NCBI GenBank assembly: GCA_041649175.1
Contig: JBAZNR010000002.1
Coordinates: forward strand, 257,766-321,765
Origin: Candidatus Omnitrophota bacterium
GTDB taxonomy: Bacteria > Omnitrophota > Gorgyraeia > Zapsychrales > JBAZNR01
DNA: 64,000 nucleotides
Direction: 5' to 3'
Positions 7,791-61,816 of the stretch are shown here, piece after piece. Made by a program: the position numbers and the translations under genes. How positions within the stretch are numbered: the first letter of the stretch is position 1; each line of letters begins with the position of its first letter. Under the pieces are notes generated by a model. That model saw only the letters and a program-made list of their open reading frames with translations, was not told the DNA's origin and searched no databases.

Positions 7791-7826
7791 TTTTCATGAC
7801 GGTGCTGAAAAGCACCGTCATGAAAA
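7791..7826 (+). terminator. perfect 16-bp inverted repeat with GAAA tetraloop downstream of the first pilin gene (attenuator or terminator hairpin)
   Basis: ttttcatgacggtgct-gaaa-agcaccgtcatgaaaa. There is no clean U-tract after the hairpin, so this is probably a partial terminator or RNA stabiliser, as often seen after major pilin genes. Confidence 0.45.
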
Positions 7827-13442: not shown

Positions 13443-13532
13443 ACTTTTCTAACAATAACAATAGTTTTTCTTCTTAATCTATAACTTGTTCTATCGCAAC
13501 GGTTTATTCTTGTTTTCCGTCTATCGAAAATG

Positions 13533-13561
13533 TTGACAACCCAATAACACTCGTGTATAAT
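13533..13561 (+). promoter_or_regulatory. consensus sigma70-type promoter upstream of recA (TTGACA-N17-TATAAT)
   Basis: ttgaca acccaataacactcgtg tataat sits 39 nt upstream of the recA ATG. Confidence 0.55.
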
Positions 13562-13599
13562 TTCACTCTCTTAATTAAATTTTAGAAAGGAAGTGGTTC

Positions 13600-14652
13600 A
13601 TGGCTGAACAGAAAAAATCAGTTGAAAAGGCTGCCGAAAAAGACAAGGGAGCCGAAACTGCCCACAGGCAAAAAGCACTCGAACTTGCCTTAATCCAAAT
13701 CGAAAAACAATTCGGAAAAGGTTCTATTATGAAGCTGGATAGCACCGTCAATATGGATATTGCGGCTATCCCGACAGGATCTTTGTCCTTAGACCTTGCC
13801 TTAGGCATCGGTGGTGTCCCTCGCGGAAGAGTCATCGAGATTTATGGACCGGAATCATCCGGAAAAACAACGCTCACCTTAAGCATCATTTCCCAAATAC
13901 AAAAAATGGGCGGTGTGGCGGCTTTTATCGACGCGGAACACGCTTTTGATTCAAATTACGCCAAAACCGTCGGCGTAACACTCGAAGACCTTTTGATCTC
14001 GCAACCTGATACCGGTGAACAAGCCCTCGAGATCGCCGAAACGCTGGTACGCTCAAATGCCGTCGACCTCGTGGTCATTGACTCCGTCGCCGCCTTAACA
14101 CCAAAGGCTGAAATTGAAGGCGACATGGGTGATTCACATATGGGGCTTCAGGCGCGTTTAATGTCACAAGCGCTCAGGAAACTAACCGCCGCCATCAGCA
14201 AATCAAAAACATGCGTTATCTTCATTAATCAGATCCGCATGAAGATCGGCGTTATGTTCGGCTCTCCGGAAACAACGACCGGCGGCCGAGCGCTCAAATT
14301 CTACGCCTCCGTTCGTATCGACCTTCGTAAAATTGAGTCTCTCAAAAATGGCGAAGAATTTGTCGGTAACCGAGTTAAAGCAAAAATTGTTAAAAATAAA
14401 GTCGCCGCTCCGTTTCGTGACGCCGAATTTGAGATCATGTTCAAAGAAGGGATCTCTTATGTAAGCGATATTCTTGATCTGGGAATTGCGCATGAGATCA
14501 TTCAAAAGTCCGGCGCCTGGCTTTCGTATGAGAATGAAAAGATCGGGCAAGGACGCGAAAGCGCGCGCCAATATTTAAAAGAAAATCCGAAAATTCTTCA
14601 AAAGATCGAAAAGCAAATTCGCGAGAAACTAGGGATCAAAAAACAGTCGTAA
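13600..14652 (+). CDS. recA: recombinase RecA
   Basis: 350 aa. Canonical RecA sequence (GSIMKL..., Walker [22 protein letters not shown]). Confidence 0.95.
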
Positions 14653-16695: not shown

Positions 16696-19300
16696 TGAAA
16701 TAAGAGCAAAGTTTTTGGACTTTTTTGCCTCCAAAGGGCACAAGATCGTGGAGAGCGATTCGGTCGTTCCCAAGGATGACCCGACGGTCCTTTTTACCAC
16801 CGCCGGGATGCAACAGTTCAAAAAACAATTTTTAGGCTACGTTGAAGGCTACACAAAGGCGGCCACATCGCAAAAATGCCTTCGCACGGACGATCTGGAC
16901 AAGGTCGGCAAGACCGCCTTTCATCATACCTTTTTTGAAATGCTGGGAAATTTTTCCTTCGGCGATTATTTCAAGAAAGAAGCGATCACTTGGGCGTGGG
17001 AATTTTTAACGCATGCGTTAAAAATTCCCAGCGAAAAGCTCTGGGTTTCGGTGTACAAAGACGACGACGAGGCATACGATATTTGGCTAAATAACATCAA
17101 AATCAAAAAAGAGCGTATTGTCAAGTTGGGCGATAAAAGCAATTTCTGGCCGTCGGAAGCTAAAGAAAAAGGCCCCAATGGTCCTTGCGGCCCGTGTTCT
17201 GAAATTTTCTATGATTACGGTGTAAACCCGAATTGTCCCAACGGAAGCAAGTGTGATCCCGATTGCAGCTGCGGACGTTTTTCGGAGGTTTGGAATCTGG
17301 TCTTTACACAATTTAACCGTAAGGAAGGCGGCGTTCTAGAACCGCTTCCCAATAAAAATATTGATACCGGAATGGGTTTAGAACGCCTAGTCGCGGTTGT
17401 TCAAGGCAAAAAAAACAATTATGAAACCGATTTGTTTGAGCCGATTATTTCCGCCATTACGCAAGAAACAGAAAAAGAAAATTGCAAATTGGAAAGAGTC
17501 GAGAAACTTATCATTGCCGACCACTTGCGCGCCATCGTTTTTGGAATTTGCGACGGCGTTATTCCGTCTAATGAAGGCCGCGGCTATATCGTTAAGAAGC
17601 TTATTATTGACAGCACCGATTTGATTTTACAAAAAGGAGTGGAAAAACCGATTGTTTATAAGCTTATTCCAAGCGTTATTCATGCAATGAAAAACCCTTA
17701 TCCCGAAATTGCAGAAAAACTCAGCGATGTTGCAACAGTTATCAAGAAAATAGAAGAAGGGTATATAAAGCTTGAGAAAGAGCGAATTCCTGAAATTAAA
17801 AAACTTGTTACCGATGCATATGCAAAAAATCAAAGTCTACAAGAAAAGCGACACGAACTCGTAGAAATTATGTTTAAATACCGCGACACTTTCGGGCTAA
17901 CATTGGCGGCAATTAGCAAAGCAATTTTGGAAACCTCAATCGGTAAAGACGAGTTGCAAGAAGGTATCAATCGTTTTCCAAGCAAAATGGACGAGCAAAA
18001 AGAACGTTCCCGCGCCTCCAGTAAAATGACCGGTGATGTTTTCGCGGAAGCCGGAATTAATCTCAACGTTCCCAAAACCGAATTTTTAGGCTATCAGAAA
18101 AATGAAGCTGGCGTGAAAATCCTAAAACTGCTTATTGAAAATAAAGAAGTCGCGGAAGCTAAAAAAGGCGATTCCATAAAAATCATCTTAGATAAAACGC
18201 CCTTTTACGCAGAATCCGGTGGACAAGTAGGCGACAGCGGAACAATTTCTAAAAGCGGCTCTGTTATTAAAGTTACAGACACGCAAAAATTTGCCGACAT
18301 TTTTATTCATACCGCAACAGTCGAAAGCGGCTCATTTAAAGAAGCTGACGCCGTAACCGCAAAAATTGACGAACCGCGCCGGCTTTCTATTATGCGCAAT
18401 CATACCGCCACACATCTTTTGCAGGCCGCTTTAAGAAAAGTTCTAGGCGCGCATGTTCAACAGCAAGGATCACTCGTCGCGCCCGAACGATTGCGTTTTG
18501 ATTTTACGCACCCGCAAGGCGTAACTAAGGACCAGCTTGCCCAGATCGAAACGCTCATTAACGGCTTTATTGCGGCGAATGACCAAATCGAAAAACACGT
18601 GATGCCCATTGCCGAAGCGAAAAAAAGCGGCGCCTTGGCCTTCTTCGCCGAGAAATATGGCGAAACGGTGCGCGTTGTTTCCATTGACGGTTATTCCAAA
18701 GAATTTTGCGGCGGAACACATTTGAATAAAACCGGCGAGATCATTTCTCTTAAAATTACCGGCGAAGGCGCCATCGCTCAAGGAATACGCCGCATTGAAG
18801 CCGTGACCGGAACTTATGTGCAAGATTGGCAAAAAGAAAAAGAATCCCAGGAACAGCTCCTGCGGCAATCACAACAGCTCAAGGAACAGGAAAAGCAAGA
18901 AAGCGAACAAAACTTTACGAACATCAAAAACTCAATTGATGCTATTATTAAAGAATCGACAATGATCGCCGATGCAACCATCGTCCGCCGACATTTTAAA
19001 GATATTGATCCGGGATTATTGCGCAGGGTTTCAGACTTGATCAAACAAAAGGTGAGATCAGCGGTCATCATTTTAACCTGTGAAAAAAGCGGCAATGCTC
19101 ATATTTTGATCGCCGTCACTGAAGACCTGATCAAAAAAGATATTAAAGCCGATGAGATCGTTTCAAGGATAGCCCCAATCATTGACGGTAGCGGCGGCGG
19201 CCGGGCGCAAATGGCTCAAGCCGGAAGCAAAAACCCCGCAAAATTACCGGAAGCACTTAAAAAAACTGAATCCATCTTGAAAGAGTTGATCGAAAAATGA
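16685..19300 (+). CDS. alaS: alanine--tRNA ligase
   Basis: 871 aa. Class II aaRS motifs and the AlaRS editing-domain metal ligands (HTATHLL…, CGGTH). Confidence 0.95.
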   Translation: MTANEIRAKFLDFFASKGHKIVESDSVVPKDDPTVLFTTAGMQQFKKQFLGYVEGYTKAATSQKCLRTDDLDKVGKTAFHHTFFEMLGNFSFGDYFKKEAITWAWEFLTHALKIPSEKLWVSVYKDDDEAYDIWLNNIKIKKERIVKLGDKSNFWPSEAKEKGPNGPCGPCSEIFYDYGVNPNCPNGSKCDPDCSCGRFSEVWNLVFTQFNRKEGGVLEPLPNKNIDTGMGLERLVAVVQGKKNNYETDLFEPIISAITQETEKENCKLERVEKLIIADHLRAIVFGICDGVIPSNEGRGYIVKKLIIDSTDLILQKGVEKPIVYKLIPSVIHAMKNPYPEIAEKLSDVATVIKKIEEGYIKLEKERIPEIKKLVTDAYAKNQSLQEKRHELVEIMFKYRDTFGLTLAAISKAILETSIGKDELQEGINRFPSKMDEQKERSRASSKMTGDVFAEAGINLNVPKTEFLGYQKNEAGVKILKLLIENKEVAEAKKGDSIKIILDKTPFYAESGGQVGDSGTISKSGSVIKVTDTQKFADIFIHTATVESGSFKEADAVTAKIDEPRRLSIMRNHTATHLLQAALRKVLGAHVQQQGSLVAPERLRFDFTHPQGVTKDQLAQIETLINGFIAANDQIEKHVMPIAEAKKSGALAFFAEKYGETVRVVSIDGYSKEFCGGTHLNKTGEIISLKITGEGAIAQGIRRIEAVTGTYVQDWQKEKESQEQLLRQSQQLKEQEKQESEQNFTNIKNSIDAIIKESTMIADATIVRRHFKDIDPGLLRRVSDLIKQKVRSAVIILTCEKSGNAHILIAVTEDLIKKDIKADEIVSRIAPIIDGSGGGRAQMAQAGSKNPAKLPEALKKTESILKELIEK

Positions 19301-42897: not shown

Positions 42898-43875
42898 ATG
42901 GATATTTTTATTCAAAAAGTTAAAGAGTCGGCTTTGCACAACAAGCTTTTTTCAAACGGCGACAGGGCCCTCGTTGCTGTTTCCGGAGGGCCGGATTCGG
43001 TCGCGCTGTTACACGCCCTTTCTCAACTGCGTTACGCGCTCGGCATTCAGCTTGTGGTTGGACACGTCGATCACCATTTACGTGCGACATCCTCAAAAGA
43101 CGCGAGCTTCGTTAAAAAACTATCTAAAGAATTGAATATTCCCTGCGAGGTCGTTTCCGTGAAAATTCAAAAGTCTTGGCGCGCCAGTTCCGTTGAGGAA
43201 CTGGCGCGCCAGGCGCGTTTTAACGCCTTGGTTCGCCTAGCAAAGAAGCATAAAATGAACACGATCGCCTTAGGACACACCCAAAATGACCTGGCCGAAA
43301 CGGTTTTAATGCGCATTTTACGCGGCAGCGGGCTTTTAGGCATGCAAAGCATTTTACCCAAACGCGTTCTTTACAATACGGTCTTTGTCCGCCCGCTTTT
43401 GCATATGACCCGGGCTGAAATTGACAAATTCTTACAGAAAAACCGCTACGCTTTTCGCCTGGACCCCACAAACAAGCAAAAACTATTTTTCCGCAATAAG
43501 ATCCGCCTGGAACTTTTGCCGCTTCTTCAAAAAAAGTTTAATCCCGGAATCCAAAAAACGTTAACCGGATTAGCCGAAACAAGCGCAATCGATTACAGCT
43601 ATTTAGAAGAACAGGCGCAAAAAGAATTGAGAAAAATTTCCGGGGAAGATCCCAAAAAAATTCCTTTAGAAAAATTTAACAAGCTCCATCTAAGCCTGCA
43701 GCGTATGATCATCCGCCTTTGCATCCAACAAAAAGCCGGAAATACCCGGCAGATCACCCTTGACCATATTAGGGAAGTGGAAAAGCTGATCGCCTCACGC
43801 GGTAAAAACGCGCGGATCCGTTTTCCCAACGGCCTTCGCGTTACCAAAGAGGGCGCTTTTCTTGTTTTTAAATAA
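42898..43875 (+). CDS. tilS: tRNA(Ile)-lysidine synthetase TilS
   Basis: 325 aa. PP-loop SGGPDS. TilS substrate-binding C-terminal region. Confidence 0.8.
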   Translation: MDIFIQKVKESALHNKLFSNGDRALVAVSGGPDSVALLHALSQLRYALGIQLVVGHVDHHLRATSSKDASFVKKLSKELNIPCEVVSVKIQKSWRASSVEELARQARFNALVRLAKKHKMNTIALGHTQNDLAETVLMRILRGSGLLGMQSILPKRVLYNTVFVRPLLHMTRAEIDKFLQKNRYAFRLDPTNKQKLFFRNKIRLELLPLLQKKFNPGIQKTLTGLAETSAIDYSYLEEQAQKELRKISGEDPKKIPLEKFNKLHLSLQRMIIRLCIQQKAGNTRQITLDHIREVEKLIASRGKNARIRFPNGLRVTKEGAFLVFK

Positions 43876-49715: not shown

Positions 49716-52700
49716 ATGCTTAAAAAAATCATTCTCTTAAGCCTTCTCCTTCTAACACTCGTTAGCTCTCCTCTCTTTGCCGATACCATTATTTCTTCCA
49801 ATATTGCCGGAAATACAACTTGGACGCTAGCCAATAGCCCTTATATTGTTACAGGAGATATTCAAGTCGCCTACGAAGGCCCCTGGTATTGGGGTGCCCG
49901 AGCCGTCCTCACAATACAACCAGGTGTTCTGGTCAAATTTGAACCAGGTGCCGGTCTGGTCATCGGAAACGGAGCGGCAGGTGGCCTTCAAGCGGTGGGT
50001 ACAACCGAGCAACCTATCACGTTTACTTCCAATGCCGCTACTCCCGCACCAGGAGATTGGAAAGGGATTTATTTTCACAACAATACCGTCCAAACCAATC
50101 TTGATCATACAATAGTCGAATATGGCGGCCATACCAACAACGCCAATCTCTACTTTGAAGGAACGTCTCCTCCTGTTATCAATTCGACTATCCGCTTTAG
50201 TAGCGGTGACGGTATTTATGCCAACGACACCTCTGTTCCTGCTTTAAGCAATCTCGCCATTAACGATAATACGTTTTATCCCGTCAATATTCATGCCACG
50301 ACTGTTGACAGTCTTGGCCTGTTAAGCGCTTCCGGAAATGGGCAGGGAGATATAGTGAAGTTACGAAGCACTGGCACAATAGGCGCAAGTACCGCTTGGC
50401 CATACACATCAATTCCTTATCTTGTCGCCTCCGACATTGAAGTCGCTTACATAGGTCCGTGGTATAACGGCGCCAGGGCTGTCCTGACAATACAACCCGG
50501 CGTCACCGTAAAGTTTGACCCCGGTGCCGGCTTGTTTATGGGGATCAACAATGCGGGAGGGCTTCAGGCTGTGGGTACAACCGAGCAGCCTATCACGTTT
50601 ACTTCCAATGCCGCTACTCCAACTCCCGGAGACTGGAAGGGGCTTTATTTTGGGACCGGCACCGTGCAGACCAATCTTGACCATACGATAGTTGAATACG
50701 GCGGCAATACCAATAACGCCAATGTGTATTTTAACGGCACCTCTCCTTTGATGACAAACTCGACGATCCGCTCGGGCAGTGGTGACGGTATTTATGCCAA
50801 CGACACCTCTGTTCCTGCTTTAAGCAATCTTACCATTAACGACAATGCGTTTTATCCCGTCAATATTCATGCCACGACTGTTGATAGTCTTGGCCTGTTA
50901 AGCGCTTCCGGGAATGGACAGGGAGATATAGTGAAGTTACGAAGCGCTGGCACAATAGGCGCCAGCACCCCTTGGCCTTACACATCAATTCCATATCTTG
51001 TCACCTCCGACATTGAAGTCGCTTACATAGGTCCGTGGTATAACGGCGCCAGAGCTGTCCTGACAATACAACCAGGTGTTACCGTAAAGTTTGATCCCGG
51101 TGCCGGTTTATTCATAGGAGGCGGCCACGATGGCGGACTTCAAGCGGTGGGCACAGCCGAGCAACCTATCACATTTACGTCCAATGCCGTAACCCCCGCG
51201 CCAGGAGACTGGAAGGGAATTTATTTTCAAAGCAACACTGTCCAGACCAATCTCGATCATACGATAATTGAATACGGCGGCAATACAAATAACGCCAACA
51301 TCTATCTTAATGGTACTTTTTTTGCTATTACTAATTCGGTCATCCGTCTTGGCAGCGGTGACGGTATTTACGCCAGCGACGGTTCCGTTCCTGCTTTAAG
51401 CAATCTTACCATTGATGATAACGCGCTTTACCCTGTCAATATTCACGCCTCGAACGTTGACAGCCTTGGTCTGTTAAGCGCTTCCGGAAATGGGCAGGGA
51501 GATATGATAACGTTACGTAGTGCGGGCGCAATAGGCTCCAGTACCCTTTGGCCATACACATCAATTCCTTATCTTGTCACCTCCGACATTGAAGTCGCGT
51601 ACACAGGTCAGTGGTATTGGGGTGCCAGAGCCGTTCTCACAGTCCAACCGGGTATTACCGTTAAATTTGATCCGGGTGCCGGCCTGTTCATAGGAGTCAA
51701 CCATGATGGCGGGCTTCAGGCTATGGGCACAACCGAGCAGCCTATTACGTTTACTTCCAATGCCGCTACTCCCGCGCCGGGAGATTGGAAGGGGATTTAT
51801 TTTGGAACCGGCACCGTTGAGGCTAATCTTGTCCATGCGATAATTGAATACGGCGGCAATACCAACAACGCTAATCTCTACTTTAATGGCACATCTTTTC
51901 CTGTTGTCAACTCGACCATCCAATACAGCAGTGGTTATGGCATTTATCTCAATAACGCATCCTTGAACCTGAGCGCACTGACAATTCGCAATGGTTTAAA
52001 TGACGGAATTCATTTGAGCGGCGCCTCGGCTTTATCTCTTACCAATAGTGCTATTGAGAATAATTCAGGTGACGGCATTGAGCTAAATGAAACTTCAAGC
52101 CTGGCGCTGATGCATAGCGCAGTACAAAATAATTCCGGTTACGCCCTGAATTCCGCAAGCTCCCAATCCCTTAGCGCAAATTATTTGAATATCGCTTCCA
52201 ATGGCGGTGGCATAAATGCAACTGCTGGCAATATCAACGCTTCTTATGTTTGGTGGGAAGATGTCTTCGGCCCATCCGGCGCGGGACCGGGGACAGGGCA
52301 ATCGGTAAGTACCAACGTTACTTACGAGCCCTGGTGTGCCGAACCGGTCAATGACACTTTTTATTTTTCCAATGTCGCGCCATCTTTGCCACAGTTTAAT
52401 CAAAACAGTGACATCACAGTTTTACATGCACAGTTGGCCCAAAACGCGAATTGGCAAGCCACGATTAGAAATAGCGATTTGCAGGCAGTGAAGAATTTTT
52501 CCGGCGCAGGCAGCATCATTGACCAGCCTTGGGGCGGAGACGATAGCAATGATCAGCCGCTTCCCAACGGTACTTATTTTTATATGATTTCTGCGCAAAG
52601 CACGCAAAATCCCGAAACGACCACCTCTGTTGCCGGACGCATAACGCTTGATGACAGCCTGCCGCTTCATATCCTCAATAATTCAGTCTCGCAGCGGTTT

Positions 52701-53558
52701 TTCAAGCCGCGTCTTCACACCACGACATCCATTCAATACACTCTTCGGTTTAATGCCAATACCACCATTCAAATTAATAATTCGTCCGGAAACATTGTGC
52801 GCACACTGATCAACAGTGAACTTCGTTCAGCCGGAGATTACGCAGAAAACTGGAACGGCACCGATGACAACGGACAACTTTTACCCGATGGGATTTACAC
52901 CTACACCATTGATGCGCAGGCGATTATCGGAGGAGAGGCTCAATACAGCCCGCCACCCACCAGCGAGCATGTGCCCCTGACCAGCGTCACCTTCGCGCCT
53001 GAGCCGTTTTCGCCCGAGCGAGGAGAACGCCTGGCTATTAGCTATAATGTTGCAGTACCAGCAAAAGTAAAGTTTGGCATTAATTTCTGGGCATTTGCGT
53101 CGGACAAGCCCAGTGAAGGAACCGGCAATATCGTTTATTGGAACGGCCGCAACGACCAAGGACAATTTTCGGATTCGGTGCAGATCGTATCCCAGAGCTT
53201 ACGACTTCCAGAAAATTTCATCGCGATTGTCGATGACCGCACTCTAGATATTTCCGCGCTCACCACCGATCCCTATTTGATCAAACCAGTTTACAATGAA
53301 GTTACAACCATTACCTATACGATCAATGAGCCGGCGAGTGTCACGACAAAGATCATAAGTCAAAATGGAAGTCAAATCATAAGGGTTGCGGAAGAAAACG
53401 TTCAAAGAGAAGCCGGAACTTATTCGGTCATCTGGGACGGCAGGAGCACGTCAGGAGAAACTGTTACAACGCCGGCAGATTATCGGGTTCGCGTAGAAGC
53501 GATAGACAATTACGGAAAAATTACTATTCGGGATGGCAATATTCGAATTGCTTACTAG
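49716..53558 (+). CDS. large secreted right-handed parallel beta-helix protein with four ~190-aa tandem repeats and C-terminal FlgD-Ig-like domains
   Basis: 1280 aa. Signal peptide. Four near-identical units (…TSIPYLV[AT]SDIEVAYIGPWYNGARAVLTIQPGVTVKFDPGAGLF…QPITFTSNAATPAPGDWKGIYF…NLDHTI[IV]EYGGNTNNAN…). Then PbH1-type repeats (NNSGDGIELN…, NNSGYALNS…) and several ~90-aa Ig-like modules (…NGTYFYMISAQ, …DGIYTYTIDAQ…). Only 18 nt separate its stop from the Rhs start. Confidence 0.8.
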   Translation: MLKKIILLSLLLLTLVSSPLFADTIISSNIAGNTTWTLANSPYIVTGDIQVAYEGPWYWGARAVLTIQPGVLVKFEPGAGLVIGNGAAGGLQAVGTTEQPITFTSNAATPAPGDWKGIYFHNNTVQTNLDHTIVEYGGHTNNANLYFEGTSPPVINSTIRFSSGDGIYANDTSVPALSNLAINDNTFYPVNIHATTVDSLGLLSASGNGQGDIVKLRSTGTIGASTAWPYTSIPYLVASDIEVAYIGPWYNGARAVLTIQPGVTVKFDPGAGLFMGINNAGGLQAVGTTEQPITFTSNAATPTPGDWKGLYFGTGTVQTNLDHTIVEYGGNTNNANVYFNGTSPLMTNSTIRSGSGDGIYANDTSVPALSNLTINDNAFYPVNIHATTVDSLGLLSASGNGQGDIVKLRSAGTIGASTPWPYTSIPYLVTSDIEVAYIGPWYNGARAVLTIQPGVTVKFDPGAGLFIGGGHDGGLQAVGTAEQPITFTSNAVTPAPGDWKGIYFQSNTVQTNLDHTIIEYGGNTNNANIYLNGTFFAITNSVIRLGSGDGIYASDGSVPALSNLTIDDNALYPVNIHASNVDSLGLLSASGNGQGDMITLRSAGAIGSSTLWPYTSIPYLVTSDIEVAYTGQWYWGARAVLTVQPGITVKFDPGAGLFIGVNHDGGLQAMGTTEQPITFTSNAATPAPGDWKGIYFGTGTVEANLVHAIIEYGGNTNNANLYFNGTSFPVVNSTIQYSSGYGIYLNNASLNLSALTIRNGLNDGIHLSGASALSLTNSAIENNSGDGIELNETSSLALMHSAVQNNSGYALNSASSQSLSANYLNIASNGGGINATAGNINASYVWWEDVFGPSGAGPGTGQSVSTNVTYEPWCAEPVNDTFYFSNVAPSLPQFNQNSDITVLHAQLAQNANWQATIRNSDLQAVKNFSGAGSIIDQPWGGDDSNDQPLPNGTYFYMISAQSTQNPETTTSVAGRITLDDSLPLHILNNSVSQRFFKPRLHTTTSIQYTLRFNANTTIQINNSSGNIVRTLINSELRSAGDYAENWNGTDDNGQLLPDGIYTYTIDAQAIIGGEAQYSPPPTSEHVPLTSVTFAPEPFSPERGERLAISYNVAVPAKVKFGINFWAFASDKPSEGTGNIVYWNGRNDQGQFSDSVQIVSQSLRLPENFIAIVDDRTLDISALTTDPYLIKPVYNEVTTITYTINEPASVTTKIISQNGSQIIRVAEENVQREAGTYSVIWDGRSTSGETVTTPADYRVRVEAIDNYGKITIRDGNIRIAY
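49790..52000 (+). repeat. four in-frame tandem direct DNA repeats of about 575-580 bp inside the beta-helix gene
   Basis: Repeat landmarks (…tacttccaatgccgctactcc…, …ccttatcttgtc[gac]cctccgacattgaagtcgc…) recur with period ~580 nt at about 49840, 50415, 50995 and 51575. Copies are nearly identical at the DNA level. Confidence 0.8.
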
Positions 53559-53576: not shown

Positions 53577-56500
53577 ATGAGCAATCTTTTTAAAAATATC
53601 ATTCTCAAATTTTCGCTAATAGTCGCACTGCTTTTCTGTGCCGTTCCGGCCGAGGCTACGAACGGGTTTTGCCACGACATGTGCTTTGGCGGCCCTGTTC
53701 AGCCCTGTGAGGTTGAAAATTGCTGGTGGTGCTGCGAAGTCATCACGACTGAATTTGACAACATCTATGACCCGGTCGACAGATATGGCAACTTGCAAAG
53801 CATGGAAAGCTTAACAGGAGAAACCTGCCCAAATACAAAGCCAGAAACGCCTATAAACCCTATTCATGGCAAAACCGACCCCGTCAACTTATCCAACGGC
53901 CAATTCTATTACAATTGCCACGATACGCAGATCCCGGGACGCGAAATCGACCTTGAAGCAACGCACATCTACAATAGCGGCTCGGCTTACAATGGCCCCT
54001 ACGGCTACGGCTGGACATTCAACTATCATATGCGCCTGCACGAACTCGCTAGCGGCGACGTCGCCATCACCACCGGCAACGGACGTAAACTTTCCTACAC
54101 CTATAATGGCTCGGTCTACGCGCCACCGACGGGGCGTTTTGAAGAATTACTTTCCAATCCCGATGGAAGCTGGACGCTTGTGCAAGCGCACGGCCAAAAA
54201 TATCAATTTGACGCGGATGGAAAACTTGTCCAGATCCAAAACCGCAATGATAATACCATCACATTATCTTATGAAGAAATCCGCCAGCCTATTTTTGGCT
54301 ACAGCCCTTTTGCCTTGGCTGTTGAGATCCAAGTCATGGTCGGCATTGATTGGCGCCTAACGCAAATCACCGATACAACCGGACGCGTTATCACGCTTAA
54401 CTATAACGCGAGCGGACTTTTGGAAACGATCATAGATGGCGCCAGGCAATACACCTTTACCTACGACTCCAACACCAATGATCTTTTAAGCATCACCAAG
54501 CCGGCCACAAACGAATTTCCCGAAGGAGTTACCCAGTCTTTTACCTACGATGCTGAGCACAATCTCGTTTCGATGACCGATGCCCGCGGGCAAGCCTTTG
54601 TTCAAAATATTTATAATACGGATGGGCGCGTGGAAGAACAGATCTTAGGAGGAAATACCATTTCCTTAAGCTACAACGGCAATCAAACCGTCCAAACCGA
54701 CCCCAACGGTAATGAAACCGTTTATACGTTCGACACCAACGGCCTCCTTTTAAGCCGGGAAGAACGCACCCGAGATTTACGCCCCGATGATCCGGATTCG
54801 TTCATAACCGCCTATGCGTATGACGCGTATCAAAACCAGATCGCGCAAACCTTACCCGGCGGTAACGGAGTTAAACTCACCTATGATACGGCCAATCCCA
54901 ATATCCGCTCCAAGGGAAATCTTTTGGAAGTTCGCCGCAAAGAGGATATGAGCCAACCCGATAATAATATCAACGATATCGTCGCCAACTTTAGCTATGA
55001 GCCCAATTTTAATTTTGTTCAAACGGCAACCGATCCTAATGGAAATACAATAAATTACACCTACGATTATCAGCTTTCCCCCGAAGACCCGCGTTACGGG
55101 GAAAACGGAAATTTAGCCGAAGTGGCGTATCCGGAAATTAGTGGCGAAACGCCGCGAGCGGCGTTTCGCCACAACCAATACGGCCAGGTCATTGAGGCGA
55201 CTGACCCTAACGGCAATACAACGCACTATGAATATTTCCCGCAAACCGGATATTTACAGCGCGTCATTGAAGACCCCAATGGCATTAACGCCGTCACCCA
55301 ATTCGCTTATGATGATTTTGGAAATCTATCTTCCGTCACCGATGGCAATAATCACACAACGGGCTTTCTCTATAATGAATTAGGCTGGCTGACGCGAGAA
55401 ACCGATGCGCTCGGGTTTCAAACTAAATATTTTTATGATGAAAACGGAAATTTGATCAGGACAGAAAGACAGACAGATGTGCAGGGAAATCAGTGGCAAA
55501 TCACGCGATCTACCTATGATATTTTAAACCGATTAACATCCATTACTGATCCTTTAAACCGTGTCACAAGTTTTGAATATGATCTAAATGGAAATCGGGC
55601 TTCCGTCACCGACGCGCTGGGACGGATTACCCATTACGATTATGATGAAAGAAACCTGCTTTGGAAGGCGACGGATGCTCAAAACGCGGTAACCGAGTAT
55701 TTTTATAACGCGAACGCAAAGCTATCGCGCATTGATGATGCCAATGACAATTCAACTATTTATGACCATGACGGGTTTGATAGATTAACGCATATGACGT
55801 ATGCGGATAACTCTTTTCATGAATATAGTTATGATAAGAATTCGAATATGACGGAAGATTTGACACCGAGCAATGCGGCGATCAGTTACGAATATGATGT
55901 TCTTAATAGACTGACCGCTAAACGCTATCCCCTAAACCCTAGTGACGATGTGGAATATGATTACGATTTGGGCTCGCGTCTTATTAGCGTACAGCGTATA
56001 GCAAATGGCGTAGCGTATGGATATGACGCGCTAAATAGAATTGTTTCTTCCGAACAAACGCTAAACGCTATACGCTATGCGCTCGGTTATGCGTACGATT
56101 TAGCGGGCAACCGTATAGGCGTTGATTATCCATCCGGACAGAGGATAGGATATGGATATGATGCGTTAAATAGAATCAGCCAAATATTTGATAATGGAAC
56201 TTTGCTGGGAAGTTATGGCTACGATGTGTTGGGCCGCCGTACGAAAAAATCTCTACTCGGAGGCGGCCCTACCGGCATCGGCCCGCAAAAAACCACTTCC
56301 TATTCCTACGATCTTGCCGATCAATTGGTTAAACTGGATAACTCGATACCAACGACAAGCACTGTTCCCGACGCCGGAATTATTTCACAATTAAGTTATG
56401 GATATGACTTGGCGGGGAACCGCACTGCGAAAAAAACACTCTCCGTAAGAACAGATCCGAATGGGACAGGTAATACACCGCATTTTACTTCAACGACGTT

Positions 56501-57791
56501 AAAAGAAATCTACAGCTACGATCCAACCTATCAAATCATTGGCTTTGATATTTCTACGGAAGCTTCCGTCACCCATCACAGCTTTGCTTATGATCTTCTT
56601 GGAAATCGTACTCAAGCGGATGATATTACATATCAATCGAACAGCTTAAATCAATATACGAGTGTTGATGGGGAAGTTTATGCGTATGACGGTAACGGGA
56701 ACTTAACTGATGACGGGAATAATACCTATTCCTATGACAGTGAAAACAGACTTTTGTCTTCAGTCTTTAGTCTTGGGTCTTTGGTCTACGAATATGATGG
56801 TTTAGGCCGCCGGATAAGTAAAAACATCGGCGGCCGTCTCACTTACTTCATTTACGACGGTGACCGTATTATTGAAGAAAGAAGCGATAGCGGTTCTTTA
56901 CTTGCTTCTTATGTTTATGGAAGCGGCCTCGATGAAGTTCTAACAATGAATCGCAATAATCAGAATTATTTCTATTTTCAAGATGGGCTTGGTAGCACCT
57001 CTGAGATCACAAACAGTAATGGACAAGTTCTCGAAAGCTATGCTTATGACGTGTACGGAGCACCTACGATTCGAGATACTGACAACAGAATAGCTCCTTC
57101 CAGTGTTATTGGTAATCCTTTCATGTTTACGGGTCAAGAGTATGACAGCGAAACCGGAAACTATCATTACAATGCCAGGGCTTACCATCCTCTTACCGGA
57201 CGATTCCATCAAAGAGATCCGCTGGGCAATATTGATAGCGAAAACTTGTATACATACGTCCTCAATAATCCAATAAATTTAATTGATCCTTATGGAGAAT
57301 TAACGTTTCCTGGTATCGGATGGGTTGACGTGGGAGAAAAAGCAGGGCGATCAGCATTAAATTATTGGGCGTCTCGGGCTGCTCTTGCTCGTAATCCATT
57401 TGAAGGTGGATTGTATAATACATTGGGCTTCTTTTCGGCACTTTGGACACCATGTACGAGTGATGCTACTTTTACAGTTCTTGGTTTGGCGACTGGAGTG
57501 AATGCTTATGGAAAATCACCAGCTTATTGGCAATATTATCCAAAAGGAAATCCCAAATATGCCTCACCGTGGTTAACAAAAGGTACAAAATTTAGCCCAC
57601 CTTATAAGACAGGAGCAGGGGCTCAAAAAGCATTGAATTTGCCACCGCACAACCCTGGAACCGCTGTAAGACCTATGAGAATTGGGCCAGGGGAGCAAAT
57701 TGCAGGTCCACGAACACCGAGACCACAACCATGGAGAAACCTACCCGGAGAAGGACAAGAATATTACAGAGGTTATAATTTTCCTAATTAA
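53577..57791 (+). CDS. Rhs/YD-repeat polymorphic toxin with Sec signal peptide (WapA-like), Cys-rich N-terminal module and unrecognised C-terminal toxin domain
   Basis: 1404 aa. Signal peptide MSNLFKNIILKFSLIVALLFCAVPAEA. 8 Cys within about 30 aa (CHDMCFGGPVQPCEVENCWWCC). Dozens of YD repeats (YDxxGNL/YDALNRL). Rhs core end motif …YTYVLNNPINLIDPYGE. Then a ~165-aa C-terminal tail with no motif I recognise. Confidence 0.85.
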   Translation: MSNLFKNIILKFSLIVALLFCAVPAEATNGFCHDMCFGGPVQPCEVENCWWCCEVITTEFDNIYDPVDRYGNLQSMESLTGETCPNTKPETPINPIHGKTDPVNLSNGQFYYNCHDTQIPGREIDLEATHIYNSGSAYNGPYGYGWTFNYHMRLHELASGDVAITTGNGRKLSYTYNGSVYAPPTGRFEELLSNPDGSWTLVQAHGQKYQFDADGKLVQIQNRNDNTITLSYEEIRQPIFGYSPFALAVEIQVMVGIDWRLTQITDTTGRVITLNYNASGLLETIIDGARQYTFTYDSNTNDLLSITKPATNEFPEGVTQSFTYDAEHNLVSMTDARGQAFVQNIYNTDGRVEEQILGGNTISLSYNGNQTVQTDPNGNETVYTFDTNGLLLSREERTRDLRPDDPDSFITAYAYDAYQNQIAQTLPGGNGVKLTYDTANPNIRSKGNLLEVRRKEDMSQPDNNINDIVANFSYEPNFNFVQTATDPNGNTINYTYDYQLSPEDPRYGENGNLAEVAYPEISGETPRAAFRHNQYGQVIEATDPNGNTTHYEYFPQTGYLQRVIEDPNGINAVTQFAYDDFGNLSSVTDGNNHTTGFLYNELGWLTRETDALGFQTKYFYDENGNLIRTERQTDVQGNQWQITRSTYDILNRLTSITDPLNRVTSFEYDLNGNRASVTDALGRITHYDYDERNLLWKATDAQNAVTEYFYNANAKLSRIDDANDNSTIYDHDGFDRLTHMTYADNSFHEYSYDKNSNMTEDLTPSNAAISYEYDVLNRLTAKRYPLNPSDDVEYDYDLGSRLISVQRIANGVAYGYDALNRIVSSEQTLNAIRYALGYAYDLAGNRIGVDYPSGQRIGYGYDALNRISQIFDNGTLLGSYGYDVLGRRTKKSLLGGGPTGIGPQKTTSYSYDLADQLVKLDNSIPTTSTVPDAGIISQLSYGYDLAGNRTAKKTLSVRTDPNGTGNTPHFTSTTLKEIYSYDPTYQIIGFDISTEASVTHHSFAYDLLGNRTQADDITYQSNSLNQYTSVDGEVYAYDGNGNLTDDGNNTYSYDSENRLLSSVFSLGSLVYEYDGLGRRISKNIGGRLTYFIYDGDRIIEERSDSGSLLASYVYGSGLDEVLTMNRNNQNYFYFQDGLGSTSEITNSNGQVLESYAYDVYGAPTIRDTDNRIAPSSVIGNPFMFTGQEYDSETGNYHYNARAYHPLTGRFHQRDPLGNIDSENLYTYVLNNPINLIDPYGELTFPGIGWVDVGEKAGRSALNYWASRAALARNPFEGGLYNTLGFFSALWTPCTSDATFTVLGLATGVNAYGKSPAYWQYYPKGNPKYASPWLTKGTKFSPPYKTGAGAQKALNLPPHNPGTAVRPMRIGPGEQIAGPRTPRPQPWRNLPGEGQEYYRGYNFPN

Positions 57792-57803
57792 AGGAGGGAA
57801 CGA

Positions 57804-58031
57804 GTGCTTATAGTAAGAAAATTAAATAATTTTAACAAAGTTGCTAATAAAGTAACTCTGGCTGAACTTAAAAAATACATACTTCCTGATGGCGATTATG
57901 CTGTTGAGCTGTTTGAGGACGAGAAAGTAATACATTTAAATATTCCTCATGGCAATATTTATTCAGAGTGCAACGAGAAAGAATGGAAAGAAGTCTTAGG
58001 GGGTTTAAGAAAATTAGGGTTAGAATTTTAG
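57804..58031 (+). CDS. small protein immediately downstream of the Rhs toxin; candidate cognate immunity protein
   Basis: 75 aa. GTG start 6 nt after an AGGAGGG RBS and 12 nt after the Rhs stop. AT-rich like the toxin C-terminal region. No recognisable domain. Confidence 0.45.
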   Translation: MLIVRKLNNFNKVANKVTLAELKKYILPDGDYAVELFEDEKVIHLNIPHGNIYSECNEKEWKEVLGGLRKLGLEF

Positions 58032-58069
58032 AAAACAGAAAACGGGACAGGTTAGAATTCCAATCATCT

Positions 58070-58111
58070 CATTTGTGTTGTTGGTAAACCAGTTTCCCAA
58101 CAACACAAATG
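58070..58111 (+). terminator. perfect 15-bp inverted repeat (catttgtgttgttgg / ccaacaacacaaatg) with 12-nt loop, downstream of the immunity gene
   Basis: Seen directly. Followed by a T-rich but interrupted tract (ttgcttgttcagttctg). Two further short hairpins follow, at about 58172-58194 and 58201-58220. Confidence 0.4.
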
Positions 58112-58231
58112 TTGCTTGTTCAGTTCTGCCCCTTATCGTACTAAATCCAATAATTAACGGGGCATTGGCTGATTAAAAACCAATCAGCCATCCCGCCAAA
58201 AGCGGCGGGATAACTTTCTTCGAAATTTATT

Positions 58232-58738
58232 ATGAAGTTAGCAGAAATAGATCTTTCACCTGAATCAGGCCGCCCTTTTGCCACAAACGCTAGGTTTTGT
58301 TTCGCTTCAAAAGCAAGCAAAACAAAACCCGCGTGGCTTAGGGTCTTCGACCGCACGAAAAAAAGCCTACTAGGAGGCGGCCCTTCCGGCATCGGTCCCC
58401 AAAAAACCACTTCCTATTCTTATGATCTTGCCGATCAATTAGTTAAACTGGATAACTCGATACCAACGACAAGCACTGTTCCCGACGCCGGAATTATTTC
58501 ACAATTAAGTTATGGATATGACTTGGCTGGAAACCGTGTTGTGAAGAAAACACTCTCCGTAAGAACAGATCCGAATGGGACTGGCAATACACCGCATTTT
58601 ACTTCAACGACGTTAAAAGAAATCTACAGCTACGACCCGACGTATCAAATAACAGATTTTGATATTTCTACGGAAACGTCCGTCACCCATCACAGCTTTG
58701 CTTATGATTTGCTAGGGAATAGAACTCAAGCCTCGTAA
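58232..58738 (+). pseudogene. orphan Rhs fragment: ORF whose last ~130 codons duplicate an internal segment of the upstream Rhs core
   Basis: nt ~58351-58732 align with nt ~56237-56617 at roughly 90% identity (KKSLLGGGP[ST]GIGPQKTTSYSYDLADQLVKLDNSIPTTSTVPDAGIISQLSYGYDLAGNR…TLSVRTDPNGTGNTPHFTSTTLKEIYSYDPTYQI…SVTHHSFAYDLLGNRTQA). The first ~40 codons of the ORF are unrelated. No signal peptide, no core end motif, no toxin domain. Confidence 0.6.
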
Positions 58739-58767
58739 CATTGCTATCATGACATAGCAATTATCTA

Positions 58768-58796
58768 TTGACACCAAATTTTCCATACGTTATATT
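58768..58796 (+). promoter_or_regulatory. near-consensus sigma70 promoter (TTGACA-N17-TATATT) upstream of the 58848 membrane-protein gene
   Basis: ttgaca ccaaattttccatacgt tatatt, about 50 nt upstream of the ATG, which has a GGAGAGAG RBS. Confidence 0.45.
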
Positions 58797-58847
58797 GAAA
58801 ACCTTACTGGATTTGTCCCGACTCGCTAGATATAAGGAGAGAGAATT

Positions 58848-59351
58848 ATGTTAGCACTTGCACTACTTGCCATTGGAGTTATCTCACGACTCATTACTCA
58901 CGCACCGAATTTTAATCCTGTCATCGCCATTGCTTTATTTAGCGGAGTTTACGTGAGCAGGAAATACGCCATTATTTTGCCATTGGCATTAATGGTTTTA
59001 AGCGATGCTGTGATCGGATTTCACGATACAATATTTTTTACATGGGGAAGTGTTGCCCTTATTGCCGCCATAGGAGTTTGGGTGCGCAACCGCAAAAATC
59101 CCGCAACCATCATTGGCTCAACGCTTTTTTCGGCCGTTTTATTTTTTATCATCACCAATTTTGGCGCCTGGCTTTCTTTGTATCCAATGACACAAAAAGG
59201 ATTTATTGATTGCTACACCTTGGCTATTCCATTTTTCAGAACGACTCTTTTAAGCACAGCCGTTTACGCGGCTGTCTTTTTTATTACTTACGAGCTTATT
59301 GCTTTACGGGTTAAAGACACACGCTTTGCCCGCGCTCTTTTAACAACTTAA
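58848..59351 (+). CDS. small polytopic membrane protein (5-6 TM), ECF-transporter S-component-like; function unknown
   Basis: 167 aa, almost entirely hydrophobic helices (…NFNPVIAIALFSGVYVS…, …FFIITNFGAWLSL…). Sits just upstream of the cobalamin riboswitch-btuB unit but outside the riboswitch. Confidence 0.5.
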   Translation: MLALALLAIGVISRLITHAPNFNPVIAIALFSGVYVSRKYAIILPLALMVLSDAVIGFHDTIFFTWGSVALIAAIGVWVRNRKNPATIIGSTLFSAVLFFIITNFGAWLSLYPMTQKGFIDCYTLAIPFFRTTLLSTAVYAAVFFITYELIALRVKDTRFARALLTT

Positions 59352-59414
59352 TTTACTATTGGGTTTTCTGAATATGAAGAACTGATAGTTTTCCATCAGT
59401 TTTTCAGACTTCAG

Positions 59415-59700
59415 GATGGTTAGTTTTCAACTAACCAAGGGAAGTCCGTGAAATTCTTACCATAGGAATTAATTCGGACGCGGTCCCGCCGCTGTAATCC
59501 TTGATTTAAGCCTTTTAGCAAAGTTTGCCACTGTTCATCTGCGGATGAACGGGAAGGCCGCTAAAAGAAAAGGAAAGCCAGAAGACCTGCCTATAGTTAA
59601 CCACAAACCTGCGCGAGACAGGATCGAACACATTTAACCCGGGACTAAGATACAGGGTGCACTCCCAGATGATGATATTCGTCTGGGAGTTTTTTGTTTG
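59415..59700 (+). ncRNA. cobalamin (B12) riboswitch with terminator-type expression platform, in the btuB leader
   Basis: Conserved elements seen: AAGGGAAG…GUGAAAUUC…CGGACGCGGUCCCGCCGCUGUAA (core, with a GCCGCUG variant of GCCACUG), a second GCCACUG, and the classical B12 box AGCCAGAAGACCUGCC (59576-59591). Terminator hairpin cucccaga…ucugggag plus UUUUUUGUUUG at 59662-59699. Confidence 0.7.
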
Positions 59701-59733
59701 ATCTTGCCTTGCCTTCGCCACAAGGAGGGCGCC

Positions 59734-61746
59734 ATGAACAAAAGATTATTAGGATTACTATTGTGCTTTTGCGTTGCCGCAAGCGGCAACGCAAAAGCAC
59801 AAAACGCGGCAGAAACCGAGCTAGACCCTATCGTTATTTCTACCAGCCGCATCGCGCACCACGATTACAAACTGACCGGTAATATTACGGTCATTCAAGG
59901 TGAGGATATTACCGCGTCCACCGCACAAAATATCCCGGAGCTTTTAAACGAAACGCTCGCCATCCACGTGACCGATACCGGCACATCCAAAACATCCACG
60001 CTGGATATCCGCGGCTTTGGCGACACCGCCGCACGCAATATCTTGGTTTTAGTCAATGACCGCATTTTAAATACGGTGGACATTTCGCCGCCGGATCTGA
60101 TGCAAATTCCATTAAGCTCGGTCGAGCGTATTGAAATTATCCGCGGAGCCGGTTCCGTCCTTTATGGCGACCGCGCGGTCGGAGGCGTCATCAACATCAT
60201 CACCAAAAAAGGAAAAGGGAATTTGTCCGGAAAATTTGGTTCGTCCATCGGAAGCTACGATAAACGAGAAACGGATATAGAGCTTTCCGGCTCTAAGGGC
60301 GACTTTGCTTATTTTCTATATTCTCTCTACAAGGACGACCGCGGATACCGGCAAAATAGCGATGTTTTATCCAAAAGTTTTAACACCCGTCTTGATTATG
60401 AATTATCCAATAAATTCGCGGCCGATATTGACCTTAGCCATCATGAAGATAGCTATGGTTTGCCCGGATACTTGACCGGACCTAATTTATCAGCGCTAGG
60501 GCCACGGGCGAGCACTTTCCCGAATGATTTTGCCCGAAGCAAAGATGATAATTTAAAGTTGGGTTTTAACATCACTCCTTGGCCGGAAAATCTTTATTTA
60601 GGAAGCTTAGGCGTAAATCTTTATTATCGCGACCGCAATATTTTTGACAGTTTTGATTTTGGGATGAGTTTGCCGTATAAAACAAATCGCAGTACTCGAA
60701 CAAAAGGGCTTGGCACGAAATACATCTTTGACCACGAGGTTTTTAATAAGGAGCTTCATTTTGTTACGGGAGTTGATCTTTACGATACGGAGAATGACAT
60801 TATCGGCAGCGGATCAAATCCGGATGATGTCACCATCTCCAGGACCGATGTGGGATTATTCGGGCAAGCAGAGTATGAAGCCTTGGACAATATTTTTGTT
60901 AACGCGGGACTGCGTTATGCGAGGGCTGATTACGCCTTTAGCCAAAGAAATAGCGCCGTGGATGAAAAAAGAGACCCCGACGCGCTCGTTTATAACGGCG
61001 GGCTAAAATACGAATACGCCAAAGGGTCGAATGTTTATTTTAGCATTCAAAGGACATTTCGATTTCTCGCGACCGATGAATGGTACAGTTCTTCCACATT
61101 TTTTGGAGCGACCCCGGGGCTTAATTTAAACCTGGATCAGCAAAAGGGAATTCAATACGAGGCGGGCCTTAAACATAATTTAAACAACATCACGACGTTA
61201 AGCTTAACGCCTTATTGGATAGAAAATAGGAATGAAATTTATTTTGACCCCAGCGCCAGCGTAAATTCCAATTACAAGAAAACCACGCGTTATGGCGTAG
61301 AGGTCGGGCAGGAAACCGATATTGCCAAATTAATGAACATTGCTCTTTTGGATAAGCTGTCGCTTTCGACAAGCTATACATTCCAAAGGCCTTTTTTTAG
61401 CGGGGGAGCCAACGACGGGAAAATAATTCCTTTAGTACCGCGCCAGCAATTTACCACCACGCTAGCCGCGCAGTTTTGGGATCATTATAATGTTTCTTTG
61501 ATCACAACTTATGTCGGCGCGCAATTTGCCGTGAACGACGTCACCAATATCGTCCCCAAGGTTGAGCCCTATATCACGCTCGATGAAAAGATCTCTTATC
61601 AAAGAGAGAACTGGGAAATATTTGGCTCCATTAACAATATCTTTAATCAGCGGTATTCGCCGTATGTTTTTTCTTACGGAACGGCTCAGTATTTTTATCC
61701 GGCCCCGGGGCGGAATTTTATTTTCGGGACAAAAATTAAGTTTTAA
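59734..61746 (+). CDS. btuB: TonB-dependent outer-membrane receptor, likely cobalamin transporter BtuB
   Basis: Start at the ATG after the AAGGAGGG RBS (MNKRLLGLLLCFCVAASGNAKAQ signal). TonB box ELDPIVIST. Plug then 22-strand barrel. C-terminal …GTKIKF ending in Phe. B12 riboswitch in the leader. Confidence 0.85.
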   Translation: MNKRLLGLLLCFCVAASGNAKAQNAAETELDPIVISTSRIAHHDYKLTGNITVIQGEDITASTAQNIPELLNETLAIHVTDTGTSKTSTLDIRGFGDTAARNILVLVNDRILNTVDISPPDLMQIPLSSVERIEIIRGAGSVLYGDRAVGGVINIITKKGKGNLSGKFGSSIGSYDKRETDIELSGSKGDFAYFLYSLYKDDRGYRQNSDVLSKSFNTRLDYELSNKFAADIDLSHHEDSYGLPGYLTGPNLSALGPRASTFPNDFARSKDDNLKLGFNITPWPENLYLGSLGVNLYYRDRNIFDSFDFGMSLPYKTNRSTRTKGLGTKYIFDHEVFNKELHFVTGVDLYDTENDIIGSGSNPDDVTISRTDVGLFGQAEYEALDNIFVNAGLRYARADYAFSQRNSAVDEKRDPDALVYNGGLKYEYAKGSNVYFSIQRTFRFLATDEWYSSSTFFGATPGLNLNLDQQKGIQYEAGLKHNLNNITTLSLTPYWIENRNEIYFDPSASVNSNYKKTTRYGVEVGQETDIAKLMNIALLDKLSLSTSYTFQRPFFSGGANDGKIIPLVPRQQFTTTLAAQFWDHYNVSLITTYVGAQFAVNDVTNIVPKVEPYITLDEKISYQRENWEIFGSINNIFNQRYSPYVFSYGTAQYFYPAPGRNFIFGTKIKF

Positions 61747-61778: not shown

Positions 61779-61816
61779 GGGGCTGTTTGCGGCATGCCGC
61801 AAACAGCCCCATTTTT
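61779..61816 (+). terminator. rho-independent terminator after btuB (perfect 16-bp palindrome ggggctgtttgcggc/gccgcaaacagcccc plus ATTTTT)
   Basis: ggggctgtttgcggcatgccgcaaacagccccattttt. The T-tract abuts the first ATG of the next ORF. Confidence 0.65.

Follow-up and report, generated by a model that had tools for sequence, protein, structure and literature searches.

A tipless internal Rhs core fragment in Candidatus Omnitrophota, probably the stump of a displaced downstream Rhs module

A 381-nt piece of the core of an Rhs gene occurs a second time in Candidatus Omnitrophota, downstream of the intact gene and its candidate immunity gene, within a window (the whole stretch of DNA that was analysed) of 64,000 nucleotides. 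The piece is probably, with a likelihood of about three in four, a 5' stump without function, left by a downstream (orphan) Rhs module. The initial annotation had taken it for a scar of recombination-driven displacement, which is the best-supported reading on two grounds: the differences between the two copies are biased towards synonymous changes, and an intact version of the arrangement is found in related Omnitrophota loci, here designated by handles such as L117. The features of the locus are as follows.

49716..53558, + strand: beta-helix partner gene, 1280 aa (Pfam Beta_helix 4e-15, FlgD_ig 2e-19)
53577..57791, + strand: main Rhs gene, 1404 aa (Pfam RHS_repeat 8.6e-75, DUF6531 4.7e-16, TIGR03696 2.6e-21)
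56237..56617, + strand: copy 1 of the direct repeat, covering Rhs aa 888-1014, in a stretch of core with little conservation, where homologues align at only 29-37% identity
57297..57788, + strand: predicted toxin domain, aa 1241-1404 (164 aa), with a conserved LWTPCTSD motif
57804..58031, + strand: candidate immunity gene (75 aa); ribosome-binding site GGAGG, GC 0.32, GC3 0.26
58032..58231, + strand: structured spacer with hairpins at 58070-58111, 58128-58163 (weak), 58166-58190 and 58190-58211
58232..58350, + strand: 40-codon leader of the orphan ORF, containing the hairpin 58293-58329 and resembling the leader of the L117 downstream copy
58351..58731, + strand: copy 2, the orphan core fragment, 90.6% identical to copy 1 in nucleotides and 95.3% in amino acids
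58732..58847, + strand: right breakpoint region, with the end of homology, a stop codon, a small inverted repeat and a promoter-like site
58848..59351, + strand: DUF6580 membrane protein gene (Pfam DUF6580 2.2e-44), the first unrelated gene, which marks the end of the Rhs locus

The main Rhs protein consists of a signal peptide (aa 1-27), a DUF6531 domain (aa 101-174), a shell of YD repeats (RHS_repeat matches in 10 stretches, TIGR01643 at 7e-56), an Rhs_assc_core (aa 1157-1240, nt 57045-57296, the extent of the TIGR03696 match) with a DPxGL-like motif (sequence ...NNPINLIDPYGEL), and a C-terminal toxin. The predicted toxin domain has no Pfam or NCBIfam match, and its AlphaFold model (pLDDT 72) has no PDB match at E <= 0.001. 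It is of the variable kind that is common to unrelated carrier proteins, recurring in 133 cluster representatives with lengths of 52-5095 aa, mostly as their C-terminal domain. Its relatives are 46-65% identical, and with the best of them at just 65% there is no recent donor of the toxin end. The 75-aa ORF that follows (57804-58031) matches no family and is a candidate immunity gene by position. Upstream of the Rhs gene, the beta-helix protein has a FlgD_ig or CHU_C-like C-terminal domain and contains four 576-nt tandem repeats; a similar protein is encoded directly upstream of Rhs in L110, L112, L114, L117, L118 and L119. In the ORFs inspected in the vicinity of the Rhs gene, no vgrG and no type VI secretion (T6SS) gene was noticed. 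GC3 falls along the main gene in two steps, from 0.55 to 0.39 at nt 55305 (a likelihood gain reached by 0 of 500 permutations) and from 0.39 to 0.24 at nt 57264, the core/toxin border, and the toxin together with the immunity gene stands at 0.24-0.26 against a background of 0.478 +/- 0.018. A compositional mosaic of this sort is what acquired 3' parts should produce.

Pairwise alignment bore out the duplicate of about 380 nt at about 90% identity that the initial annotation had described: nt 56237-56617 of the main gene recur at 58351-58731 without a gap, at an offset of 2114 nt, with 345 of 381 positions identical (blastn E = 1.8e-149). The stretch of about 100 nt that had seemed almost identical proved to be 104 nt with one mismatch (56310-56413), of which the 86 nt at 56328-56413 are all identical; a further 50 nt, beginning at 56472, also match without exception. 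The window contains no other long repeat, except the internal repeats of the adjoining beta-helix gene, and no further Rhs-like DNA, either downstream of the fragment or elsewhere in the 64 kb. In translation, aa 888-1014 of the main Rhs protein match 58352-58732 over 127 aa (E = 1.3e-67). As this segment is located 143 aa before the Rhs_assc_core, the orphan is an internal core piece with neither the core end nor a toxin, and the earlier description of it as tipless holds.

Copy 2 lies in frame inside an ORF of 168 aa (58232-58738), and there is no stop codon or indel in the 128 codons of the core fragment. The homology ends at about 58731-58735 and the stop codon occupies 58736-58738, so that the ORF closes two codons past the equivalent of Rhs aa 1014. 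A small inverted repeat (58740-58761) follows the stop codon, and a promoter-like site (58768-58796) precedes the next gene. TIGR03696 has no match in the orphan ORF, which includes neither a core end (DPxGL region) nor an alternative C-terminal toxin; nor has it an immunity gene of its own, its stop codon being only 109 nt from the DUF6580 gene.

The two copies differ at 39 nucleotides over 128 codons, 26 of them at codon position 3; 26 differences are synonymous and 13 nonsynonymous. By the Nei-Gojobori method, dS is 0.35 and dN is 0.04-0.05 (dN/dS 0.11-0.13). The nonsynonymous share is 33%, as opposed to approximately 63% expected if the downstream copy had decayed neutrally after an in-place duplication, and a count of 13 in 39 has P = 1.4e-4 if one copy evolved neutrally and P = 2e-8 if both did. 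Because the differences are mostly synonymous, the copies must have been functional alleles for most of their divergence, rather than products of decay in place, and were brought together, or one of them stranded, recently. The mismatches are also clustered, with a perfect run of at least 86 nt arising in 122 of 20000 shuffles of codon columns, which is consistent with a crossover or conversion tract.

This codon-position pattern is the reason for rejecting a simpler origin, in which a unit of 2114 nt (56237-58350) was duplicated in tandem, most of the second copy was deleted and the remainder has been decaying neutrally. Such an event would account for the gapless repeat at an offset of exactly one unit, and for a fragment that is 95% identical in amino acids to the main gene when the next best protein is only 29-37% identical. 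It conflicts not only with the substitutions but also with the absence of any stop codon or indel and with the leader of the orphan ORF, which resembles the L117 leader and not the main-gene sequence upstream of 56237; we regard it as very unlikely. Still less probable is an assembly artefact, in which MEGAHIT would have spliced the Rhs core segment of a variant strain into intergenic sequence. The source is indeed a single metagenome contig (k141_2245591, 659 kb, ENA ERZ27247363), but both flanks of the fragment are unique and without homology to the flanks of the segment in the main gene, the contig name suggests a k-mer of 141, which exceeds every identical run (at most 86 nt), so that the assembly graph should not branch there, and comparable arrangements of a main gene and a downstream copy are present in independent assemblies from other samples (L110, L117, L119, L120).

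The loci chosen for comparison were the eight that encode the best Omnitrophota homologues of the main Rhs protein. Closer material was not found: a search with the orphan ORF protein matched only itself, a search with the full Rhs protein returned nothing above 50% identity, and the 128-aa segment matched only generic YD-repeat proteins (27-48% identity) in metagenome and genome contig collections. Half of the eight loci have large truncated Rhs copies downstream of the immunity gene, as listed here by position in the respective locus.

L117, 11347-13431: downstream copy equivalent to aa 686-1196 of its main protein, 80% nucleotide identity
L119, 12205-15000: downstream copy equivalent to main aa 294-1148, 74% nucleotide identity
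L120, 5806-8634: downstream copy equivalent to main aa 568-1332, 67% amino acid identity
L110, 17149-19349: downstream copies equivalent to main aa 619-823 and 750-1175, 70-74% nucleotide identity

The points at which the downstream copies start vary over the equivalent of aa 429-774 of the window Rhs protein. The copies of L117, L119 and L120 are long (694-942 aa) and keep an Rhs_assc_core and a toxin, followed by a small candidate immunity ORF. Those of L110 are decayed and without a toxin, and include a core-only ORF of 268 aa; L110 also possesses two tip-only orphans together with IS110 and Y1 transposase genes, and a core scrap of 28 aa is found in L114. All of the downstream copies have open frames, with dN/dS of 0.08-0.16 against their own main genes in the comparisons that allowed an estimate of dS (saturation prevented this in one L110 case).

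The window resembles these four loci in the Rhs family (44-50% amino acid identity), in the position of the copy behind the immunity gene and in the selection signature; most of them also have the upstream beta-helix partner. The window copy differs from theirs in comprising only 128 core codons and in having no signal peptide. In L117 the copy is 98-100% identical to the main gene over approximately 180 nt at its 5' end, and in L119 it is 82-98% identical over approximately 600 nt, dropping further on to 50-75% in both. The window fragment looks like the counterpart of this 5' zone of high identity from which everything beyond has been removed, although its own identity profile has no perfect 5' tract of the kind seen in L117. 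Besides this gradient, which L117 and L119 have in common, L117 shares with the window a structured spacer and a hairpin motif in the leader.

The first 40 residues of the orphan ORF have no Pfam match. The initial annotation had called this N-terminus unrelated, which probably does not hold. The window sequence at 58190-58350 aligns colinearly with the L117 leader at 11300-11592, scoring 31 (z = 4.0) where dinucleotide-shuffled sequences give 19.3 +/- 2.9, one of the 400 doing as well, and control regions gave z from -0.85 to 2.0. The alignment takes in the hairpin just ahead of the core junction, with arms GGTTTTGTTTCGCTT/AAGCAAAACAAAACC in the window and TGTTTTGCTTCGAAAT/ATTTCGAAGCAAAACA in L117, and the 14-mer AAGCAAAACAAAAC is found only in the window and in L117 (11540-11553) among 120 loci. 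Since this 14-mer is read in different frames in the window and L117 ORFs, its conservation is not at the protein level. No comparable leader hairpin was found in L119, L120 or L110. The downstream copies of L117, L120 and L110 (two ORFs) begin with signal-peptide-like leaders that have positive n-regions and 12-aa hydrophobicity means of 2.07-2.59, and a similar picture is given by the frame that lies upstream of the L119 copy. The orphan ORF's leader reaches only 0.43, as against at least 2.07 in the related leaders, and no frame of the window spacer contains a signal-peptide-like hydrophobic segment. Judged by these alignments, the orphan leader is probably not random read-through sequence; it is probably related to the signal-peptide leader of the downstream copy in L117, in a degenerate form that lacks the hydrophobic core. 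This suggests that the window fragment descends from an L117-like, leader-bearing module minus the signal-peptide core, a lead that comes from two instances.

Between the candidate immunity gene and the leader is a spacer that is unusually rich in secondary structure. The hairpin at 58070-58111 has 20-nt arms with one mismatch, within which lies the perfect inverted repeat of 15 bp that had been noted at the outset; that account counted two more hairpins, and more than two are present. They include one of 9 bp at 58166-58190, one of 8 bp at 58190-58211 that is GC-rich and terminator-like, and, in the leader, the hairpin at 58293-58329 with 15-nt arms and one mismatch. The 319-nt stretch 58032-58350 folds with z = -7.7 and -7.9 relative to shuffled sequences, while other intergenic stretches of the window range from -1.7 to +1.3; the L117 spacer is strongly structured too (z = -6.5). 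No Rfam family matches the spacer at E <= 1, the sole match within 57000-60000 being a cobalamin riboswitch (59396-59608), and a scan of viral contigs for the hairpin pattern gave no match. Apart from the leader motif in L117, no second copy of the spacer was found in the 64-kb window or in 118 fetched loci. A hairpin element of the REP/RAYT or IS200/IS605 type was considered for the spacer and rejected, the spacer being single-copy in the 64 kb and no Y1, IS110 or rve transposase homologue being encoded in the window; the inverted repeats that flank the Y1_Tnp gene of L117 differ in sequence from the spacer hairpins. Also set aside was the structured region of L110 at 13803-14322 (z = -4.6), as another hairpin-rich spacer: it directly follows an IS110-family transposase gene, is made of repeated units and probably belongs to the IS110-family element.

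The reading that we prefer, a 5' stump of a downstream module, may be laid out as a series of events. The locus may once have comprised the main Rhs gene and its immunity gene, followed by a second, truncated Rhs copy that started inside the core and would have extended past the end of the core to a toxin and an immunity gene of its own, as is seen in related Omnitrophota loci. Such an arrangement could have arisen when the resident Rhs gene acquired, by recombination through core homology, a piece made up of 3' core, toxin and immunity gene, which pushed the resident 3' part downstream, that is, by C-terminal displacement according to the circular-intermediate or single-crossover model (Jackson 2009, PMC2935791). 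A later deletion would have taken out all that lay between 58735 and the DUF6580 promoter region, and the leader would have lost its signal-peptide core. The deletion is an inference: no relative above 50% amino acid identity turned up in the protein database or in the two DNA collections scanned, so that the intact ancestral arrangement of this locus was not seen, and L110, L117, L119 and L120 are comparators at the family level only.

The remnant probably does nothing today. The orphan ORF lies behind terminator-like hairpins and has no toxin, core end or signal peptide, and we consider it a pseudogene. The missing Shine-Dalgarno site was discarded as a sign that the ORF is silent, as many evident genes of the window are also without one. 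A contrary possibility is that the 168-aa ORF is maintained, either as a small expressed YD-repeat protein or as a silent homology anchor for the excision and re-acquisition of toxin and immunity genes. Its intact frame, its purifying-selection-like signature and the conserved hairpin and leader in front of it would suit such a role, and the direct repeats would release a 2114-nt circle with the toxin and immunity genes, the first step of the model of Jackson 2009 (PMC2935791). However, the only database match of the ORF is itself, it lacks the signal peptide of the related downstream copies, it is without a core end or toxin behind its terminator-like hairpins, and a low dN/dS is equally expected of a recently stranded piece of a functional allele; the prospect that the ORF is maintained is a slim one.

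The leaders raise a further alternative. A plain displaced fragment would not bear a signal-peptide-like leader, yet the downstream copies of L117, L120 and L110 do, and these downstream modules may be self-contained short Rhs genes, not silent orphans, that were formed in a way differing from the enterobacterial model. In the window and in L117, one and the same leader and hairpin adjoin the core at different positions, and the Rhs proteins of the two are only approximately 46% identical. Such modules could be cassettes consisting of a structured spacer, a conserved hairpin leader (a signal peptide when intact), a variable part of the shell, a toxin and an immunity gene, of which the window fragment would be a decayed example, but we hold this to be doubtful. 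If it were true, the end of the cassette would be conserved at the DNA level, and could be a site for joining or mobilisation, or else a leader that exports partial Rhs proteins by themselves.

Returning to the stump of a displaced module, its closest parallels are found in the Enterobacteria. Behind intact genes, rhs fragments with core pieces that differ in length have been described and attributed to recombination via proposed circular intermediates (Jackson 2009, PMC2935791), and rhs-CT/rhsI modules of the orphan type were defined by Poole et al. 2011 (PMC3150448). The window fragment resembles these displaced fragments (PMC2935791; PMC3150448) in being downstream, on the same strand and started by homologous core, with GC falling toward the 3' end, and the related Omnitrophota loci likewise have core pieces of variable length. 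It differs in having no core end, alternative toxin or immunity gene, in being a piece of the deep core (aa 888-1014 of 1404), and in its host, a metagenome-assembled genome of Candidatus Omnitrophota whose Rhs protein has a Sec-type signal peptide. What it does match is a tipless displaced core fragment: core-only, downstream, and corresponding to an internal part of the core of an intact gene. The initial annotation had presented a tipless piece as a departure from classical Rhs loci, a view that has to be given up, as in E. coli clade IV the intact gene at rhs position 4 is followed by core fragments that have no tip (Jackson 2009, Fig. 5 legend, PMC2935791), and the 268-aa ORF of L110 and the scrap in L114 are of the same kind. 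Internal core without a tip is debris of a known type. The window instance belongs to another phylum and Rhs lineage than that of E. coli, and it is 9.4% diverged, whereas the core regions of associated and dissociated fragments are described as always identical within each E. coli strain (PMC2935791).

The fragment had also been proposed as a substrate for future homologous recombination that could swap or delete the downstream part of the main gene. Deletion, or release of a circle, is possible in principle: RecA-type recombination between the 381-bp repeats, with their perfect tract of 86 bp, could delete or excise the unit of 2114 nt, made up of the remaining shell together with toxin, immunity gene and spacer, and would leave the chromosome with a toxin-less Rhs protein of approximately 1015 aa. 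A swap of toxins is impossible, because the fragment carries no tip. In Salmonella Typhimurium LT2, rhs-main recombines with rhs-CT-orphan through 522 bp at 95% identity, deleting the toxin and immunity genes of rhs-main (Koskiniemi et al. 2014, PMC3967940); the direct repeats of main and downstream core in the window are comparable, at 381 bp and 90.6%. The LT2 recombinant gains the orphan toxin, whereas a window recombinant would stop after its approximately 1015 aa, which would be a loss and not a switch.

The fragment is most likely an ordinary by-product of the exchange of Rhs toxin ends, in an unusual phylum. By itself it adds little, other than that the debris of toxin-end turnover known from Enterobacteria also occurs in Candidatus Omnitrophota, an uncultivated group in which these Rhs proteins have Sec-type signal peptides and a beta-helix partner gene. 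The synonymous-biased divergence (dS 0.35) implies exchange between fairly diverged alleles, and thus that toxin modules are traded among these organisms. The signal-peptide leaders on truncated downstream copies, and the hairpin common to distant loci, could outweigh the fragment in importance if they are confirmed in more genomes.

Behind the main Rhs gene, several related Omnitrophota loci carry second, truncated Rhs ORFs that begin with leaders such as MVQRFFRKTLCLTLSLSILASQVACA and MIKKFALTIFFIFLGSVLFPYPTSAS, which resemble signal peptides on the criteria of charge and hydrophobicity alone:

L117 11347-13431, downstream truncated Rhs ORF
L120 5806-8634, downstream truncated Rhs ORF
L110 17149-17955 and 17979-19349, two downstream truncated Rhs ORFs
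L119, downstream truncated Rhs, frame open from 12034

Mid-core Rhs sequence is joined directly to these leaders, and therefore the downstream ORFs of the related loci may encode exported short Rhs proteins rather than being silent orphans. The leader and hairpin that precede the downstream Rhs copy of the window (58190-58350) resemble those of L117 (11300-11592) at the DNA level, with a colinear alignment of the two leaders (z = 4.0) and a common 14-mer, AAGCAAAACAAAAC, despite the Rhs proteins of the two genomes being only about 46% identical. The core positions abutted by the leader differ between the window and L117.

The main Rhs gene of the window is itself a compositional mosaic, in which GC3 falls from 0.55 to 0.39 at nt 55305, a change point deep within the core, and again at nt 57264, reaching 0.24 in the toxin. 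The toxin domain (57297-57788), for which no match was found in Pfam and no fold match in the PDB, is a member of an unnamed family in which the motif LWTPCTSD is conserved and the motifs YQYYPxGNP and NPGTAVR also occur; it is located mostly at the C-terminus in 133 cluster representatives of up to 5095 aa. Three copies of this domain are present in an array in L110.

The window contains seven perfect palindromes with arms of 15-20 nt, and loops of 0-5 nt, each with a different sequence:

7791-7826, perfect palindrome
12248-12281, perfect palindrome
16997-17030, perfect palindrome
43177-43211, perfect palindrome
55141-55172, perfect palindrome
59761-59802, perfect palindrome of 42 nt, just within the 5' end of a TonB-dependent receptor gene
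61779-61810, perfect palindrome

Several are within ORFs with the frame preserved, including one within the Rhs gene. No comparable perfect palindrome arose when the window was shuffled twenty times, and other Omnitrophota loci, 149 kb in total, yielded three. A cobalamin riboswitch (59396-59608; Rfam RF00174, 81 bits) precedes the TonB-dependent receptor gene.

In L117, the Rhs island as a whole, reaching from the beta-helix gene to a Y1_Tnp gene, lies between the two copies of a direct repeat (1-641 and 15552-16192; at least 641 bp, 99.8% identity) spanning thyA' and folA. Inverted repeats of 31 nt (14473-14503 and 15267-15297) flank the Y1_Tnp gene, and a third copy of them occurs at 13803-13829. 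In L110, a structured region (13803-14322, z = -4.6) with repeated units of about 100 nt follows immediately after the gene of an IS110-family transposase (12417-13802), and may be the non-coding RNA region of the IS110-family element.

Immediately upstream of the DUF6531-Rhs gene lies a gene for a large protein of beta-helix or fn3 type that ends in a C-terminal FlgD_ig domain. The two form a conserved two-gene unit, found in the window (49716-53558 with 53577-57791) and in L110, L112, L114, L117, L118, and L119, the two genes often overlapping by one base. Within the beta-helix gene of the window, a 576-nt repeat occurs in four tandem copies at 49839-52142 (76-81% identity). The two-gene unit is found in neighbourhoods that are otherwise unrelated between loci, which suggests a delivery partner, a mobile unit, or both.
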